From Reclinomonas americana ATCC 50394 (Eukaryota): a stretch of DNA of 64,000 nucleotides. Each line of letters begins with the position of its first letter. Within the stretch, counting starts at the first letter, position 1. A program made the translations under genes and the position numbers. The notes under the pieces were generated by a model, which saw only the letters and a program-made list of their open reading frames with translations, had not been told where the DNA came from and ran no database searches. This document shows, piece after piece, positions 6,532 through 59,080 of this stretch. The stretch covers positions 59,361-123,360 of the forward strand of contig PS015030.1 in NCBI GenBank assembly GCA_048213135.1, written 5' to 3'.

Positions 6532-6877
6532 TAAAGTAGGAAAGAAGTGATCGCAACTGCCACTTCTCCGCCTCTCTATGTCTCGCTCTCACAAGGCGAA
6601 CTCAGGCTTGCCGACTTGAGTTGCGTGCGTCTGCGTGGTGGTTTCATGTCGCTTCTCACCTGCTTTCACTCACGGTTGGTGGCCCTTCAGTTCTCTCCCC
6701 CGTTCGCAGACGGCTTCCACCGACTTATCGTCTGTTTCACTCGTCGCTCACATGCCCCCTGGAACATGCATCCTGAGTCACAAATGTTGGCCGCAGAAGC
6801 CTGTGCACATGTGGCTTCTTCCTGCTTCTCATCTTTACTCCGCCGATCGTACCAGCTCACTCTCTTTGGCCTCAGCA

Positions 6878-16326: not shown

Positions 16327-18939
16327 ACCACCTCAGTGGCCTCACGCCCTCGTGGGACTTTGGCACCATCTACTGCTCACCCGTGACCAAGAGCCTCCTT
16401 CGACGACGCTTTGGCCTGCCCGACAGTCGCGTGGTCAGTCAGTGCCCTCGTCTCACTCTCCTCCCTCTTGCTCTCTGTCTGAGAGAGTCCCATGCAGATC
16501 GCCCTTCGCCCTGGCGAGACCCGCAGCATCGTGGACGCGCGCACAGGCAGTGTCGAGTGCCACCTCGTGGCCTTTGATGCCAACCACTGCCCGGGCTCCT
16601 TCATGTTCCTGCTCACCGACCACCGTCACGTCGGCAATGTACTGTGTACAGGCGACTTCCGATTCGATCCCGCCCGCCACAACAGCGACTTTCTCAGCCA
16701 GCTCCCCTCGCGCGTCGATGTCATGTACGTCGATGATACGTATGTGTTTCCCGGCATGGAGTTCCCGCCGCAGCATGTGGTCGCCGCGCAGCTTACGCGC
16801 CAGTTGTGCGAGGAGTACGACGGATATCGCGTGTATGTGGGCATTGATTCGCTGGGGAAGGAGACGCTGCTGGTGCAGGTGGCCGAGGCGTGTCAGTCGC
16901 TGGTGCATGTGTCGACGGCGCGTCTCTTGGCGCTGCATGATATTGCGGGGGCGGCGGAGGAGGTGCCGGAGGATTTGTGTGCGGCGAGCGTGGCGCGCTG
17001 CTTGCACTATTTCGTGGATCAAGAGGAGGAGGAGGAGAAGAAGAAGGGACGGCGGCGGCAGCAGCAGCAGCAGCAGGAGGCGCCGTCGTGCCGCGTGTTT
17101 GTGTTGCCGAAGCGGGAGTTGACGGAGGCGTTGTTGCGTGCAGATGAGGGGAAGAGAAATGGTTTACTTGGCGCTCATTCGCTGCCCCCCCACTCGCGCA
17201 GCATTGCCAAGCAGCACGCCGAGTACCCCAGTGTCGGCATCCTGCCAACCGGGTGGGCGGCCATGGGCGCACAGTCGTCTGCCGCCGCTGAACAAGAACC
17301 ACAGCCACAGCATCCGGTTCCCGACACGCCCACCACGGAGACACAGAAGACCGTGGTTTCGCGAGCCATCACCTCGGCGCTGTCGGTCGTCCTTCACCAC
17401 CCACCCGCCACCACCACCAAGCTGCTTCTGCGCGTGCCGTACTCGCTTCACTCGTCGTCCAGCGAGCTGCGCGAGTTTGTGCGGCGAGTGAAGCCGCTGC
17501 GGCTGGTGAGTGCGTCGCGTCAGGACAACCTCGCGCTCCAGCGACAACTCGGCATTCCAGCGGCACTCGGCACCGACAGTGCCAGTGGTAGTGGCGCTGT
17601 CGCGGATTGCGCCACTGGCGCCACCTCCTCCAATGGGCGAAAGGCGCGGTCGGCGGTCGGCGTGCTGCAGCCGTTGTCACCCGAGGAGTGTCGACAGGCG
17701 GCAGTGTTGAGGAAGAAGTGGTGCGTGTGACTTGCCAAGTGTGACTTCTCTTTCTGCGCAGTCATGTGCTCGTTCCTTCCCCACCGCTTCCTTGTTCAGC
17801 TATCAGATCGTTGCTGTGTGCTTGTACCTGCACTCTTTTCTTGTCTGCCAGTTGTGCTTGCCCTTGCTCCGCTGGTGTACTTCTGTTGTTGCCTATTCAA
17901 TCCGCTGCTATGTTGTGTGTCCGTCCACCTGTCCATCTCGTTGCTGTGTTTGTTTGTTTCATGCACTCTGGACTCGACTGCTAAGTTGTTTGCCAGTTCT
18001 GCTTGCCCTTCTACTCAGCTGCCCGTCGTTGTTGTGGTTGACGATTGTATGTTCAGTCTGTGCTCACTTGTCTGTACCATCCTTTTTGTCTTTTTCGCCA
18101 TTCCATTGCTTCACTGTGGTGGCTGTCGCCTGTCTTCTGTGTTTCTTGAACATCCTTAGTTTCCAAACAATGTGCTTCACTTGCCACATTTTGTTGCTTC
18201 CCTGCGTCTCTGATCCTCCTTCCCGACCCCTCCTCCCTCTCCTTCCCCTCCTTCCCCTCCTTCTCCTCCATGCTCGCTATTTCCACCTCCTTCCCCCTTC
18301 CCCTTCCCCCCTCCTTTCCCCTCATTCTCCAGTTTCCCCTCCTTCCCCCTCCTTCCCCTTCTCTTCCCCTTCTCTTCCCCCTCCCTCCCCCTCCTTTCCC
18401 CTCCTTCCCCCACCTTCCCTTCCCCCTCCCCCTCTTTTCTTCTAATTTCCCTCGCCAGGTCCAACGCCGCCATGGGCATCATCTCCAAACCCGACGCCAG
18501 CGAGGAGGCGGCCTGTGGCGGCGGCGGCGGTGGCGACCCGATGGAGGCCGGCGCAGAGGAAGACGAAGACGGCGCAGTGCTCATCAAGCTGCCCAAACTC
18601 CACCATCGGCGTCGCCATCGCGCGTCAGACCCTCCACCCCCAACTACTGCTGCTGCTCCACTTCCACCTCCGCCACCGCCACCACCACCACCAATACTGT
18701 CTCCCGCGTCGTCATCGGTATCCTCCGCCGGCCCCATGTCCACCGACGAGAACACCGAGAGTGGCGAGGGACGACGCAAGCTGCCCGAGTTCCTGCGTCG
18801 CCGGCGACACTCGGAAATGTCGGTGGACAGCCCATCGGCGGCGACCCTCGCACCGGCCGAGAAGCGGCCTCGCGCCGGCACCGCCAGCTCTGCCACTCTG
18901 CAGAAACTGGCCGCTCTGCTGCAAAGTCGCCATCGCTGA
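16327..18939 (+). CDS. SNM1/Apollo/Artemis-family (DCLRE1) metallo-beta-lactamase/beta-CASP nuclease; 5' exon not resolved
   Basis: DHLSGL...IYCSPVT, DANHCPGS, TGDFRF, YVDDTY, IDSLGKE, ILPTGW, VPYSLHSS..EL..FV. An intron from ~17721 to 18458 joins a low-complexity C-terminal exon ending at 18939. Confidence 0.88.
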
Positions 18940-27203: not shown

Positions 27204-28424
27204 ATGCTGCGATCGTGGTTTACCTCGCACGCACTTGCGTTGCTTCTGCTTTCGGTACTCGTGTGCTGCACTGCAGTGCACGCAGCGTACGTCTACGAGG
27301 ACGAGAGTTGCGAGAGAAGCAGTTTCTTCTTTTGCTCACACTCACTCTCTCTCACTCTCTCTCACTCTCTCTCCCTCTCTCACCGCAGACGAGACACTGG
27401 TGCGCGGCTCCTTGTTGCGTCCACTCTTCTCCTCTCCCCTCCTCACCTCTGTGACGCTGTCACTGACTCCCTGTGTGTGCACAGTGCCGATGAGTTGTTT
27501 GCCGAAGAGTTTCGCGCGCGCGATGGTGTATCAGTGCGTGCGTTTGGGTGCAACGACTCATCATATTCGTCTCTCGCGTGTACAGGGCTCTGCCGAAGAT
27601 CTTGACCAGCCCCTTCCGCACGTTCACTGGCGCCAACAACAGCCCGTCGGGTCCCTATGGCGTCTCCAGCACCCCGCAAAGTCGCATCCTCCCTCCTCTC
27701 TACAAGGACGGCATTGGGCAGCCACGCGACGGACCCAACCCGGTGAGACGCTGTTTCATCTTGCCTCTCTCTCTCTCNNNNNNNNNNNNNNNNNNNNNNN
27801 NNNNNNNNNNNNNNNNNNNNNNNNNNNNNNNNNNNNNNNNNNNNNNNNNNNNNNNNNNNNNNNNNNNNNNNNNNNNNNNNNNNNNNNNNNNNNNNNNNNN
27901 NNNNNNNNNNNNNNNNNNNNNNNNNNNNNNNNNNNNNNNNNNNNNNNNNNNNNNNNNNNNNNNNNNNNNNNNNNNNNNNNNNNNNNNNNNNNNNNNNNNN
28001 NNNNNNNNNNNNNNNNNNNNNNNNNNNNNNNNNNNNNNNNNNNNNNNNNNNNNNNNNNNNNNNNNNNNNNNNNNNNNNNNNNNNNNNNNNNNNNNNNNNN
28101 NNNNNNNNNNNNNNNNNNNNNNNNNNNNNNNNNNNNNNNNNNNNNNNNNNNNNNNNNNNNNNNNNNNNNNNNNNNNNNNNNNNNNNNNNNNNNNNNNNNN
28201 NNNNNNNNNNNNNNNNNNNNNNNNNNNNNNNNNNNNNNNNNNNNNNNNNNNNNNNNNNNNNNNNNNNNNNNNNNNNNNNNNNNNNNNNNNNNNNNNNNNN
28301 NNNNNNNNNNNNNNNNNNNNNNNNNNNNNNNNNNNNNCTCGTCCTCCGTCCGTACGACGACGGTACGACGTACGGTACGGAGACGACGACGACGACGACC
28401 GACGTACGTACGTACGTCGTTCTT

Positions 28425-28472
<48 letters not shown>

Positions 28473-31344
28473 TGGCGTTGTGGGTCCTGACGCGCACTTG
28501 GATTGATTTATGCAGCGCGCTATCAGCAACGCTGTCTCTGCACAGTCGTACAACACAGAGAACGAGTTGAGCGCCAGTGACTGGTTGTGGCAGTGGGGTG
28601 AGTATCCCTGCACAAACTCCCCCTCTATTCCTTGTCCCTCACTCGCACTGACCGACGTCGTCTTCGTTAGGTCAATTCATCGACCGTTGCGCGATGCGTT
28701 GTGTGTCTTTTCACCGGCTGGTCGTGCACTCAATTCCCTTCTTCCATTCATCATCGCAGATGACATGACGTTGACACCCGACGACCCAAACATGCCGCTG
28801 CCGATCCCGATCCCGGCCGGTGATCCGATTTTCGATCCGCAGTTGCGCCTGCCTTGCAGGCTGACGTGAAAGCGTGCGACTGTCTCTAATGCTCGTGGTG
28901 TGACACGCACAGGAACACTGGCACCAAGTTCATCGCCTTCAACCGCAGCGTGTTTGCCTCCGGCACTGGCGTGAGCAGCTCGGCGCCTCGTGTTCCGGTG
29001 CGTGCTGTCATTACTACCTCTCACTTTCATTCACCTCACTCTTGTGCTTTGCTTGCAGATCAACAAGCTCACTGCCTTCCTCGACGCGAGCATGGTCTAC
29101 GGCTCGGATGATGCTCGCGCTGCTGGTATATGTGCTACTTGACGGCGTCGATGCTCCTTGTCTTCGTCTCACACGCTTCGGCACAGCTCTGCGAACTGGC
29201 TACGACGGCCTGCTCAAGACATCGTCTGGCCCCGACGGCGACTACCTGCCGTTCAACACTGGCGGTATGCTCCCCCAAACCCGTCCCTTGTCTTTTCTCT
29301 GTCTTCATGTGCTCACGAACTGAGGTTGTCGCAGGTCTTGCCAACGCTCCCGATGGCGGCAAGAACCCCAACATGTACGTCGCTGGCGATATTCGCCCGA
29401 ACGAGCAGGTGCCGTCGTCGTAAGAACCCACTTATTGTGATGAAGTGTACCTCCCTCTCACCTCGAGTGTGCAGATTGGACTGCTGGCGGTGCACATCCT
29501 GTTTGTGCGTGAGCACAATCGCCTGGCTCGTGCCCTGAAGAAGGCGGTGAGCAGTACCCACCAATCTTGTTGCTCTTTTCTGTCAACACTTTCTCGCTCT
29601 TTTGCCCACGTAGCTTTGCGCCTTTATTCTCATTTCGTCTCTCATTATCTCTATCTCTCGCTATGTTCTCACGCCTTTGTTGTCATGGCGAGTCCTCACG
29701 TTTGTTGTTTCTTCTTTACTCTGTGGGCAGCACCCGGAGTGGAACGACGAGACTCTGTTCCAGAGTTGAGTTCGTGCTTGTCAGTCCCGAACGGAGTTTA
29801 TTGTACTCATTTCCTGCACCAACTTGCAGCCGCTCGTGCCATTGTCGGTGCCGAGATCCAGATCATTAGCTGTGCGTCTGCGTCACTTTCGTACGAGCAC
29901 CACAATGATGGTTCACTTACGACATTTTTCTGTGCAGACAAGGAGTTCCTGCCACTGATCCTGGGTCCGAAGCCCTTGCCTCCGTACGCTGGCTACATGC
30001 CCGGCGTCAATCCAAGGTGGGTCGCGCCACTAGTCGAGTCGGCAAGTTGTCGTCCACTCGTCATTCTCATGCATTCTCTCACAGCATATCGGTTCTTTTC
30101 TCCACTGCCGCCTTCCGCCTGGTGCGTTGTTGTCCATGGCTGTTATGACATGCCTTGTGTCCTCTCTCACACTGTCTGCTCGTGTAGGGCCACACAATGA
30201 TCTCGGCAAACATTCTGCGCGTCGACTCGTACTTGAAGCCCATCTCGTATGGTCCTCTGCCGATTCGCCGATCGTTCTTCAATCCGAGCATCCTCGCCAA
30301 GGAGGGCGGCTTGGATCCTGTGCTGCGTGGTCTTGCAGTCCAGCGGGTACGTTGATCATAAAGCTCGACCTCCATTCGTGCCGGATTCTCACATTCTCGA
30401 GTGGACTTGATGCGGATACACAGGCCCAGCGCCTCGATCTACAGTTTGTCGACGACAGTGCGTACTCCGCCTTATCATTCGCCAACACCATGTAGTACGA
30501 GTGACTTACTATTGTTGTTGTTGTTATGCATGCAGTTCGCAACCTGCTCTTCAAAGAGATGAATGCGTTGCGTGGATATGCGACGTTTGTCACGCTCACC
30601 GCATCGCATGTTGTACTCACACGCGGTTATCTGTGCTGTGCGCAGTCAGGCGGATCTCATGGCTCTGAACATTCAGCGCGGTCGCGACCATGGTGCGTTC
30701 TTTTCCCATAACTCATTCTTCCCGTTTCTGCTCCTCATGCCAATTTCACAGGTCTTCCCACGTACAACTTCTTCCGCTGGGCGTACGGTCTGCCGGTGCC
30801 GAAGAGCTTTAACGACGTTGCGTCCATCACCCCGCTTCACCTTCACGGCCGTCACTCCTGACGGTGATTGCTGGGCAGGTGACGAGCGACCCTGCTGTGG
30901 CGGCGCGTCTGGCCTCGGTCTACGCGACGGTGGACGACATTGATGTGATTGTCGGTGGTCTGGCTGAGGACCACATTGCAGGCGGCATGGTCGGACCGCT
31001 GTTCCAAGCGATTTTGTTGCGTTGTTTGCGGGCAGCAGCAAGACGGTCTCTTGCGTTGTGCTTCTGACCCGGTTTTATGTTTTGGTTCTCGCCACGGCGC
31101 AGGCGCGATCAGTTCCAGCGTCTGCGCGACGGCGATCGGTGGGTGCAACAGAGAACACAGCAGCGACGTTCTATCGACTGTGGAACTCACCGTCACTCCT
31201 CTCTCCCGCAGCTTCTGGTACCAGCGTGTGTTTGGCGGCAAGTTCCTCGCGCAGCTGGAGACCATTCGCCTCTCCACCATCATTCGCCTCAACAGCAGCA
31301 TCGGCAACGAAATCGACGACAACGTCTTCGTCTGGAAGAACTAA
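27204..31344 (+). CDS. Secreted heme peroxidase, peroxidase-cyclooxygenase (An_peroxidase) superfamily, ~24 exons
   Basis: Signal peptide; FRTFTGANN, WQWGQFIDHD, INKLTAFLDASMVYGS, AGDIRPNEQ, FVREHNRLA, AFRLGHT, DLMALNIQRGRDHGLP, QFQRLRDGDRFWY. The first three junctions are uncertain. Confidence 0.95.
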
Positions 31345-33463: not shown

Positions 33464-55151
<21,688 letters not shown>

Positions 55152-56503: not shown

Positions 56504-59080
56504 TCATGAACGACGGTGAGCGCCACTGGCATTTTCGACCACTCGCAGCATCAGTGGGCCGTCGCGCTCGCGTGCCACGTTCTTCGCCTCTCTCCAGTCC
56601 TGCATGGCGCACAGAGGCGAGATAGCATGAGATGAGTGGCGGAATAGAGCACAATGACCACAACAACTCGTCCCGATACACCGAGCAAGATCAATCACTC
56701 TCTGTTCGCATTCTGCCCCTTTCTCCTCAGAATAATGTCACCGAAAGGTTGACATTTTGCATCCACTCTATTCCTTCATCCCCCCTCTCTTTCAGTCTCC
56801 CATTCACTCCTGAGAGCACAGTCCATGCATGTAATCGAGCGACGACAAAAAGGCAGACACATTGCTGAACAGAGCAACATGAAGAGCGTCGAGATTCAGC
56901 GACCATTCACCACGCACTCTGCTCCTTCGAAACCGTCTCGTCTCCGCAACTCTGTCTCTCCCCTCTCCCCGAAGAATACGACTGAGCGACAACAAAAAGA
57001 CGCATGACAGGAAGATAATAATCGCCTAAGGCGTCTCTCTCTCTCTCTCTCTCTCTCACTCAGTCTATCATCATGATCATCCCTCCCGTTCCATCTGCCT
57101 CACACTTCTTGTCCAGCCACCGTTCTTCTTTCCTCTCCCTTCTCCCTCTCTCCCTTCCCCCCAACCCCCTCTTCCCCCACCAACTCACCTGCTCCGACAC
57201 CACATCCACCGTGTCATTGTCGCCATCAACATACTGCAGTGAGAACCGCACCGGCAACTCATGCGTGGCGCCCAGCTCCCGCAGCACGTCGACCAGTGTT
57301 GTGGCCAGGGGCACGGCGACACGCTTGGCGTGCCCGTTGGCAAAGGAGAACTTGAGGCGCACGCCGTTGCCCTCCGGCTCGACTTCTTGTGCAGCGGCGG
57401 CTCCCGTGGCCGCTGCTGCCGCAGATGAAGGAGGCTGCCAAGGACCATTCTTGGGGCGTGTAGCCGCAGCCGCAGCTACTGGCGCCGTGTTTAGTGGAAC
57501 AGGATTCGCAGGTGGTGGTTGGGACGGTGGTGGGGCAGTGGAGAGCACCACGGTGACTGGAGCTTGCGGCTTGGGCGGTGGTGGGCCGAGACCGGGAATG
57601 GCGGGGACGGTGGGTGATGGGGCAGTAGAAGGGCGATTGGCAGTGGGAGGTTGGACGGGCGGTGGCGCGGTGCCTGTGAGAGAGGGGGGAGAGGGGGAGA
57701 GAGAGAGAGGAGGGAGGGAGGGGAGCTGTTGGAATCGAGAACGAGAGAAGAGTGACAAGTGCTTAGAGCTGAGTCTTAGTGTGCAAGCATGAGTGTGTGC
57801 GTGTCTCTCCCTCGGTGTGTGGGTGTGTATGAGAGAGAGAGAGAGAGGAAGACAGAGATGGAGGGTGGAAACTGAGCAGGTGAGAGGCAACATGCAGAGA
57901 GGAAGTCTGCTCGTGATAGACATAGGCAGGATTACACACACAACAAGTGAATCAATGACACGGATGTAAAACAAGGCTCAACCTGTAATGCCTTTGCGGC
58001 GACGAAATTCGACAATGGCCTCTTCCGGTCTCATGTCCGCAGGGCGATCGGTGAGGCCGAGGGCGCGAGCGGTGCTTACAAAGCCGTTGCCTGTTTTGTG
58101 TAAATGGGGAAATGTCAGAGTTGATACCGAGCACGAAGACAAGACAGGAATAATTACGCACTGTGGATGCTAATCGAAGTTAGCGGCAGACGGCTCTCTG
58201 CGAGAATGCGAATGCCTTCCTCGCCCAATCGATTGCCTGTGATGCGAAATAAGTCGGCAAAAAATGAAACACGAGTGTGCGGGCGGGGGGGGGGGGGGGG
58301 GGGGGGGGGGTGGCACACATGCAATGTCGAGGTTTTCGATGCAGGTGGCGCGGCCGTTTGCAATGGCTCGCGCGCCCTTGGGTGTAATGTCGTTGTCTGC
58401 ATTGATAATCAGCGATCCAGAGTGCGTTGTTCAGGCTGCATACGGAGACTCACGAGAGGTGCTTATCCAGCGCAGATTGACCATGCCATTGACAATACTC
58501 TCCATGCCCGCATCGCCAATGCCGGCATCTGCGAGAGGCCATGAGCGGTACAGTGCACAACCAACAACTATGGAGAGAGGGTCGGCCATCGCAACTGAAA
58601 ATGGAGAGCGTGTGCACATGGACCAGCCTGGAGAGTGCTATGGCGCCCTCGGCGCCAAGATAGGTGCCTGGTAGGAGATAGGAGTAGGTGAGGAGTAGAG
58701 GAAGGACAGGCGTGAAGGTGATGAAAGACAGGAGGGAAGTGAACGCCAAGCGAGAGAGAGAGAGAGGAGGGAGGGAGAGAGGAGGGAGGGAGGGAGAGAG
58801 ATTGAGCAAAAATGAATGTGAGATCGGCAAATCTAGTTCTACCACACAAGCTGGGCAAGAAGCGATCGGATGATGCCACGCACCTGCCACCTGCAGATTG
58901 GTCAGATTGGGAAATGTCTGCGCCACCAACACGGCTCCGGCGGGACCCAGCTTTCCACTGGTGGCGTCGAACCTGTCCACCTCGCCGCCCCACTGGTGCT
59001 TCTCCACAACGTAGCACACTCTTCGCAGATCGTCCACCTCCAGCGTTCGCCGTCCGAGCGCGCTCCAGGAGACGCAAATC
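56504..59080 (-). CDS. RI-like leucine-rich repeat + Pro-rich linker + C-terminal PB1 domain protein; start exon uncertain (upstream of 59080)
   Basis: LRR exons KLGPAGAVLVA, YLGAEGAIALS, GIGDAGMESIV, NDITPKGARAIA, NRLGEEGIRILA. PB1: VRLKFSF...LQYVDGDNDTVDVVSEQ / DWREAK...PLMLRVV. Confidence 0.8.

Follow-up and report, generated by a model that had tools for sequence, protein, structure and literature searches.

How one U1 small nuclear RNA (snRNA) recognises thousands of differing donors is a wide question, and pairing registers other than the canonical one have been demonstrated largely for individual sites, in human cells. Roca and Krainer reportedly described, in 2009, a shifted (+1) register at a small number of human sites, and a register with a bulge at +2/+3 is said to have followed from Roca et al. 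in 2012. In passages of PMC4856993 and of the review PMC9311317 both the shifted and the bulged register are treated as established for human sites, and the melting table of the former lists a shifted-register site in which exonic ACA is followed by GUCAAGUAUA. Outside this setting, part of 10.1101/2022.04.05.487178 describes exon-side and intron-side signals that trade off against each other across eukaryotes, and sections of 10.1101/2022.06.08.495308 match a U1 carrying ACAAAC with GUUUGU donors in Entamoeba and one carrying ACGUAC with GUGCGC in Mastigamoeba. Here we describe a second, abundant class of splice donor, GTTGCGT, in a stretch of 64,000 nucleotides from Reclinomonas americana ATCC 50394 (GCA_048213135.1, contig PS015030.1, positions 59,361 to 123,360), referred to below as the window.

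We show that the motif of this class is displaced, that the preference for an exon-final G is lost with it, that several of the boundaries are exact, and that donor class and exon end covary among paralogous introns. From these observations we infer that U1 takes part, in a shifted register, at such sites, and propose a route by which the two donor forms may be interconverted. A literature search yielded no account of an abundant GTTGCG or displaced donor class serving a large share of introns, most subscription journals and supplements lying outside its coverage.

Results

The window consists of GC-rich eukaryotic DNA, is broken by 19 N gaps and has abundant short introns. The evidence base consisted of its DNA, of homologous proteins and of papers, and all introns were predicted from the DNA; one exon of 53 residues, used as a query, returned no match. 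Donors were sorted into three classes: ordinary donors, with G at +5; GTT-class donors, with T at +3, G at +6 and a base other than G at +5; and the rest. Introns were predicted by a home-made gene finder that combined codon log-odds, an acceptor matrix, a length model and a donor model; as the donor model was confined to positions +1 to +9, the exon's last base never entered the choice of donor. Two other versions had been dropped: a first gene finder without splice-site models, which recovered only 9 of 19 introns set by hand in a peroxidase gene (see below), and training on long open frames, many of which are spurious in GC-rich sequence. The gene finder returned 136 introns on both strands, many of them clearly in error, the exons being 0 to 25 bases long, and the set was therefore filtered. 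Both flanking exons had to be at least 30 bases long with a positive coding score, the intron 45-200 bases long, the acceptor score at least 0, and read-through had to break the frame. The 19 hand-set peroxidase introns were admitted whatever their filter outcome; together with 33 introns from the gene finder they make up a filtered set of 52, with 84 dropped.

In the filtered set, G stands at -1 in 24 of the 33 ordinary donors, in none of the 15 GTT-class donors and in 4/4 of the rest (p=2.4e-6; Fisher p values compare ordinary with GTT-class donors throughout). The contrast was similar under a stricter filter (46 introns; 21/28, 0/14 and 4/4; p=4.4e-6), under a looser one (58 introns; 26/37, 1/17 and 4/4; p=1.5e-5) and in the 33 introns outside the peroxidase gene (15/22, 0/9 and 2/2; p=0.0008). 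Across all 136 predicted introns the corresponding counts were 41/81, 1/30 and 9/25. An earlier note on this DNA had claimed that the use of displaced donors is almost confined to exons ending in a base other than G; the association is thus upheld and replicates outside the gene in which it was best anchored. The note's own count, 27 of 28 GTT donors without -1 G and a donor at 57982 as the exception, agrees with the 1/30 of the gene finder, the single case being again 57982. Altogether the GTT class accounts for 15/52 filtered introns (about 29%). Viewed from the exon, those ending in G are followed by 24 ordinary donors, 4 others and no GTT donor, and those not ending in G by 15 GTT and 9 ordinary donors. 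Word counts that use no gene model agree: GTTGCG occurs 53 times on both strands and is preceded by G in 4 cases, and GTTGCGT occurs 24 times and is never preceded by G.

These figures must be read against the local background. While the G content of the window is 29.5% overall, G is under-represented before GTT, preceding 213 of 1339 non-donor GTT words (16%) and 85 of 580 non-donor GTTG words (15%). Since G is scarce before any GTTG, what chiefly produces the contrast is that ordinary donors strongly prefer -1 G and the GTT class does not. Against the 15% background, 0/15 gives p=0.09, 1/30 gives p=0.05 and 0/24 GTTGCGT words give p=0.02; all seven G-preceded GTTG[AC]G words lie inside exons or on the antisense strand of genes. 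It is a solid result that the marked preference for -1 G seen at ordinary donors is absent from GTT donors. The four filtered donors without +5 G, at 29126 and 29409 on the plus strand and at 44948 and 37074 on the minus strand (GTATAT, GTGCCG, GTAATA and GTCTTT), all have G at -1, an instance of the classical -1 G/+5 G trade-off.

GTT-class donors (n=15) have G at +4 in 14/15, C at +5 in 14/15, T at +7 in 11/15 and C at +8 in 9/15 cases, +6 G being part of their definition. Ordinary donors (n=33) read GTG(C/A)GT, with +3 G in 28/33, +4 C in 17 and +4 A in 10, and +6 T in 26/33. When GTTGCGT is set against G/GTGCGT (the slash marks the exon-intron boundary), the second letter is the sole difference: the GTT-class motif is the ordinary consensus displaced one base into the intron. 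At -1 the class has A 5, C 6, G 0 and T 4, much as ordinary donors have at -2 (A 8, C 11, G 3, T 11); if the ordinary -2 G rate of 9% is taken as the expectation, the probability of 0/15 is 0.24. The predicted cut falls one base upstream of the junction that a shifted U1 helix would imply, and homologues fix the boundaries at 28686, 28842, 29765, 30817 and 31016 in the peroxidase gene and, likewise, at 41898, 39749 and 34958 in a second, giant gene.

In other respects the two sets of introns are alike. Median intron length is 68 bases in the GTT class and 71 in the ordinary class, with similar base composition; C at acceptor position -3 is found in 14/15 and 29/33 introns; and a YTNAY motif occurs 8-45 bases before the 3' end in 14/15 and 29/33, a weak test with so short a motif. 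The phases, 5, 5 and 5 in the GTT class as compared to 17, 12 and 4 in the ordinary class, do not differ significantly (p=0.11). All 15 filtered GTT-class introns have GT and AG ends, as U2-type GT-AG introns do, and in all 15 read-through breaks the frame; judged by these predicted boundaries, they are probably ordinary short GT-AG spliceosomal introns.

Two other identities were considered and rejected. An introner-like mobile family was sought by comparing the 52 intron bodies all against all, and the only matches were exact ones of 9-11 bases and one of 19 bases at 95%; the latter joins two ordinary introns, and no intron-body match was specific to the GTT class. As GTT-class introns share no runs beyond about 11 bases, they are not a mobile-element family. 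U12-type introns have a long conserved donor of the RTATCCTT type; the donor consensus here is GTTGCGT, and a U12-type assignment was discarded.

The exon boundaries are best anchored in an animal-haem peroxidase gene of about 24 exons (27204-31344, plus strand), recognised by Pfam An_peroxidase matches on single exons and interrupted by an N gap at 27778-28337. Between 28516 and 31344, 20 exons were set by coordinate, and removal of the 19 introns leaves one open frame of 462 codons. Its spliced protein can be aligned, over residues 1 to about 460, with 75 homologues, the best of which has about 51% identity. Junctions were checked on the 40 best homologue alignments, over 8 residues on either side. 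Six of these 19 introns are GTT-class, with C, A, A, C, C and T at -1, and 11 of the 13 others have -1 G (9/11 of the ordinary donors and 2/2 of those without +5 G). The 12 of 14 given in the earlier note differs in that it also counts the donor at 27744, G/GTGAGAC, which runs into the N gap.

The donor at 28686-28692 (C/GTTGCGC, phase 1) splits the conserved His codon, C/AT, of GQFIDHD, and its junction window reads WQWGQFIDHDMTLTPD as compared to YGWGQFIDHDLDLTPV in homologue P0123. Because the next exon begins with A, this boundary cannot slide, and an intron with both boundaries moved by one base (TT...N) is excluded here by the conserved His, one of the residues by which the earlier note held boundaries to be fixed. 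The next exon begins with G in 7/15 GTT-class introns, and a one-base slide at those would give an identical mRNA. At 28842-28848 (A/GTTGCGC, phase 2) and 29765-29771 (A/GTTGAGT, phase 1) the junction is gap-free in 35/40 homologue alignments. It is gap-free in 40/40 at 30817-30823 (C/GTTGCGT, phase 0, after the Asp codon GAC) and in 40/40 at 31016-31022 (T/GTTGCGT, phase 2), the second boundary said in the earlier note to be fixed by conserved residues. Residue spacing in PDB chain 8s6c_A is exact across 31016 and 31139, and off by at most one residue across 28598 and 28686. Of the six donors, 30567-30573 (C/GTTGCGT, phase 2) has the weakest anchor: it is required for the open frame, is gap-free in 0/40 alignments and corresponds to a one-residue indel in a loop.

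Upstream of the N gap the peroxidase exons come from a parse search alone, without homology anchor. The four best 5' parses all contain, with low confidence, two further GTT-class donors, at 27307-27313 (A/GTTGCGAGA, that is A/GTTGCGA) and at 27414 (T/GTTGCGTCC, that is T/GTTGCGT). Counting these low-confidence donors, the gene has 7 to 8 GTT-class donors in about 23 introns, close to the 7 of about 23 reported before.

Most of the filtered introns outside the peroxidase gene come from a giant fibrocystin-L-like gene (33464-55151, minus strand), and one part of this gene holds repeated introns that can be compared directly. Its tandem cadherin-like repeat units can be aligned with one another (MAFFT), and five of them end with a phase-0 intron in the same, repeat-end column (introns within 44123-46204, minus strand); a self-BLAST of the giant protein did not detect the repeat units. 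The five donors are TTG/GTGAGT at 46204 (ordinary), GAT/GTTGCGT at 45528 (GTT-class), CAG/GTAATA at 44948 (without +5 G), AAT/GTTGCGC at 44578 (GTT-class) and CTC/GTTGCGT at 44190 (GTT-class). Thus -1 G goes with ordinary-type donors in 2/2 cases and -1 T or C with GTTGCG in 3/3. These paralogous introns are a small natural experiment, in which donor class tracks the exon's last base in 5/5. The bodies of the five introns cannot be aligned, their similarity being limited to the signals. At 45246-45528 the predicted introns 45528-45432 and 45431-45246 (minus strand) abut with a zero-length exon between them, and the 3' end of the 45528 intron is doubtful.

The stability of U1 pairing was computed for the best helix of each donor in the canonical, the +1 shifted and the +3-bulged register (ViennaRNA; mean values), with a human-type U1 5' end taken from Table 2 of PMC4856993, which may not be that of the host. 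Ordinary donors (n=33) gave -5.75 kcal/mol in the canonical, -0.25 in the shifted and -2.47 in the bulged register; the GTT donors (n=15) gave 0.00, -0.62 and -0.28 kcal/mol, respectively, the canonical value being 0.0 at 15/15 sites. By mean energy, canonical pairing is not equally stable at GTT sites (0.00 vs -0.62 kcal/mol shifted) in the comparison of registers that the earlier note had put forward. With a hypothetical U1, in which positions 5 and 6 complement the local consensus, the GTT sites gave -6.13 shifted, -4.76 bulged and 0.00 kcal/mol canonical. On that measure the shifted register ranks first among the three at GTT sites, whichever U1 model is used. The number of pairs at GTT sites is 6.1 shifted and 6.1 bulged as compared to 4.0 canonical, for a human-type U1 with which 9/15 sites stand at 0.0 kcal/mol. 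A bulged helix is not the most stable at GTT sites under either U1 model, and is so only at 57982. This donor (CAG/GTTGAGC, 57976-57982, minus strand), the sole one of the GTT type with -1 G, opens a predicted intron of 309 bases without homology anchor. With the human-type U1 end it reaches -7.8 kcal/mol, with CAG/G paired and one U bulged, and its most fitting reading is as a site in the bulged or canonical register.

The model of the giant gene has 5295 codons in about 50 exons, of which the tiny 5' ones are doubtful. Its long exons match Pfam TIG, G8 and CEMIP beta-helix, homologues reach at best 41-42% identity, and model residues 2564-4887 align as one piece with P0005. The gene also contains Spherulin4-like parts, tandem cadherin-like repeat exons and, in addition, an extended array of GDGSGTG-type repeats. 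Beyond the repeat units, its GTT-class donors (all on the minus strand) include A/GTTGCGT at 41892-41898, between exons of 2224 and 1947 bases, where 9/11 alignments are gap-free and the junction aligns with VSVCGFPCTVATATYSAL in the homologue; A/GTTCCGT at 39743-39749, the sole member without +4 G, gap-free in 16/29 alignments and aligned with PQHPEGPSATTSVCPRRL in the homologue; and A/GTTGCGT at 34952-34958, between exons of 242 and 670 bases, gap-free in 3/9. A fourth, C/GTTGCGT at 47353-47359, lies between exons of 648 and 1078 bases. Further filtered donors of the class, with first bases at 52346, 50494 and 38772, are backed by their flanking exons, phase and broken read-through; the junction at 38772 falls in a poorly conserved stretch and is gap-free in 1/9 alignments.

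Elsewhere in the window, a gene at 16327-18939 (plus strand) matches SNM1/Apollo-type DNA cross-link repair proteins at 31-40% identity. It carries a GTT donor, T/GTTGCGT, at 17133; the exons on either side are 635 and 519 bases long, and the donor failed the filter because its 69-base intron is in frame and stop-free. Six extra GTTG[AC]G words with A or T in front, at 6620 and 22512 on the plus strand and at 56950, 56306, 56220 and 252 on the minus strand, have a good acceptor 48-90 bases downstream and lie outside gene models or were left unchosen by them; they may be donors of unmodelled genes or untranslated regions. No snRNA gene was found in the window at Rfam gathering scores, and a search at E up to 1 gave sub-threshold microRNA-like matches only. 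The microRNA-family matches at 51618-51787 and 54532-54644 (best E 0.0017, far below gathering scores) are taken to be simple-repeat matches without weight.

Discussion

As GTTGCGT is G/GTGCGT moved by one base, the best reading of these data is that U1 pairs with GTT sites in the +1 shifted register, a reading that we favor but hold tentatively. The intron's first G would then occupy the slot of the exon's last G, opposite U1 C9; the +3 T would occupy that of the +2 T, and bases +4 to +7 those of +3 to +6. The cut would still be made before GT, since G+1 and U+2 are needed in the later catalytic steps. At such sites the last exonic base would go unread, so that they could serve where coding forbids G, for example after Asp and Asn codons, and GTT and ordinary forms might be interconverted by gain or loss of one intronic T, with the reading frame undisturbed. 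Two observations speak for this register. A bulged helix leaves U1 C9 free and therefore predicts a preference for -1 G, of which none is seen, whereas a shifted helix fills C9 with the intron's first G, and the -1 base should then behave like an ordinary -2 base, as it does. Moreover, a -1 G preference exerted at the catalytic stage should persist at GTT sites, where the cut is the same; it does not, which points to the U1 stage. A more general proposition, for which our confidence is lower, is that the machinery needs a G opposite U1 C9, supplied by the last base of the exon if the coding sequence permits and otherwise by the first one of the intron, the whole motif being slid by one; alternatively, the class might have a U1 variant of its own.

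Several results weigh against pairing in the shifted register. The human-type U1 end gives no stable register for GTT sites, 9/15 of them scoring 0.0 kcal/mol in every one. Placing G at -1 in silico improves the GTT sites to -3.57 kcal/mol and deleting the extra T to -1.53; with the hypothetical U1 these changes give -8.90 and -8.32. As -1 G or loss of the T strengthens pairing, U1 duplex stability alone explains neither the lack of -1 G nor the GTT excess, and the predominance of GTT donors at exons not ending in G (15 vs 9) is not accounted for by pairing energy. The +5 C of the class, found in 14/15 donors as compared to 17/33 for the matching +4 C of ordinary ones (p=0.008), is a mismatch to the human-type U1. 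Active avoidance of -1 G is only suggested, the p values of 0.05 to 0.09 being marginal. As to the material, the sample is one 64-kb window with few genes, 37/52 filtered introns lying in two of them; the gene finder was trained first on the peroxidase introns and then retrained on its own output; and the junctions are predictions from DNA. The proposal of the earlier note that the intron's first G replaces the -1 G in U1 pairing is therefore borne out in part: the displaced motif, the lost -1 preference and the ranking of the shifted register agree with it, but its mean energy of only -0.62 kcal/mol, the sites at zero and the better pairing of the altered sequences do not. As to its corollary, that the exon end dictates the register, filtered exons ending in G have no GTT donor, and pairing energy does not explain the GTT excess at the other exons.

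The uniform motif, the near-fixed +5 C and the weak energies keep in play a dedicated factor, either a second U1 variant or another trans-acting factor, complementary to GUUGCGU(C) and unshifted, with the exon end lying outside its motif. Such a factor is unlikely in our estimate, but it would account for a motif that is very uniform over 7 to 8 bases, for a +5 C that selection by a human-type U1 would not favor, and for GTT sites that are stable in no register with that U1. An altered U1 matched to unusual donors is, moreover, described for Entamoeba and Mastigamoeba in sections of 10.1101/2022.06.08.495308; in the same sections, two other lineages with a preference for +4 C have a standard U1. 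The window holds no snRNA gene and hence lends the idea no direct support, and a displacement of exactly one base is more simply obtained with a single U1.

We regard as improbable a bulged register, in which U1 and later U6 pair normally with one T looped out, and the low frequency of -1 G reflects background composition and the origin of the sites. A +3 (or +2) bulge is known for human sites (PMC4856993, legend to Figure 1C), the number of pairs equals that of the shifted register (6.1 each), the -1 G site at 57982 pairs well in this manner (-7.8 kcal/mol), and G precedes GTTG in only 15% of cases window-wide. However, -1 G adds a stacked G:C pair to the helix and takes the mean from -0.62 to -3.57 kcal/mol. 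As it stabilises the bulged helix, these weak sites should favor -1 G as much as ordinary ones do (24/33), and yet 0/15 and 1/30 have it; with either U1 model, the mean energy is also poorer than in the shifted register.

A cause acting after U1 is likewise quite improbable. According to this explanation, exons without a final G lose contacts with U5 loop 1, a strong intron motif compensates for them, and the extra T serves U6 or the geometry of the active site. Part of 10.1101/2022.04.05.487178 reports that 5' splice sites across eukaryotes fall into two classes, in which the potentials for U5 and U6 interaction are anti-correlated, the -1 G at all four donors without +5 G is the same kind of trade-off, and U1 energies do not favor the GTT form. 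For U6, however, bases +4 to +7 of the GTT sites are displaced by one as well, which poses the same register problem, and no gain for U6 is seen in the sequence. Wrong boundaries or a small-sample coincidence, which the 84/136 predicted introns that failed the filters, many of them plainly wrong, and the doubtful 5' end of the peroxidase gene might suggest, are very improbable given p=2.4e-6, its replication outside that gene (p=0.0008), the agreement of the gene-model-free count, gap-free homologue alignments at 5/6 peroxidase and three giant-gene GTT junctions, and a donor model limited to +1 to +9.

Were pairing in the shifted register correct, a register that is rare in human cells would be routine here as a genome-wide second donor class, in about 3 of 10 introns, and nature would have separated the role of the exon-end G in U1 pairing from its role in catalysis. 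If nearly one third of its donors were displaced and tied strictly to the exon's last base, the genome would offer a natural system in which to test register choice on a large scale. Gene finders that know just one donor model would put GTT introns in the wrong place, and annotation of this organism would need two donor classes.

Among the systems described, the human shifted register is like the one proposed for the GTT class in that the U1 pairs are displaced by one, the cut is at GU and the first G faces C9. It is unlike it in that the register here would serve about 29% of introns (15/52), at sites with a fixed GUUGCGU, a poor match for a human-type U1, and is deduced from sequence. The +2/+3 bulge register resembles the class in having an extra nucleotide right after GU and a pair count equal to that of the shifted register, and differs in leaving U1 C9 free for the exon's last base, with the -1 G preference that this predicts. 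The trade-off outlined in part of 10.1101/2022.04.05.487178 has its counterpart in the window, where the signals are anti-correlated and -1 G is present in 4/4 donors without +5 G; that system, as far as it is set out there, stays in one register, whereas the GTT class adds a one-base shift of the whole intron-side motif. In the sections of 10.1101/2022.06.08.495308 on Entamoeba and Mastigamoeba, as in the window, the donor consensus departs from GUAAGU, including a GUGCGC type with +4 C; each of those lineages is presented with one donor class and one matching U1, whereas here two classes stand side by side within single genes.

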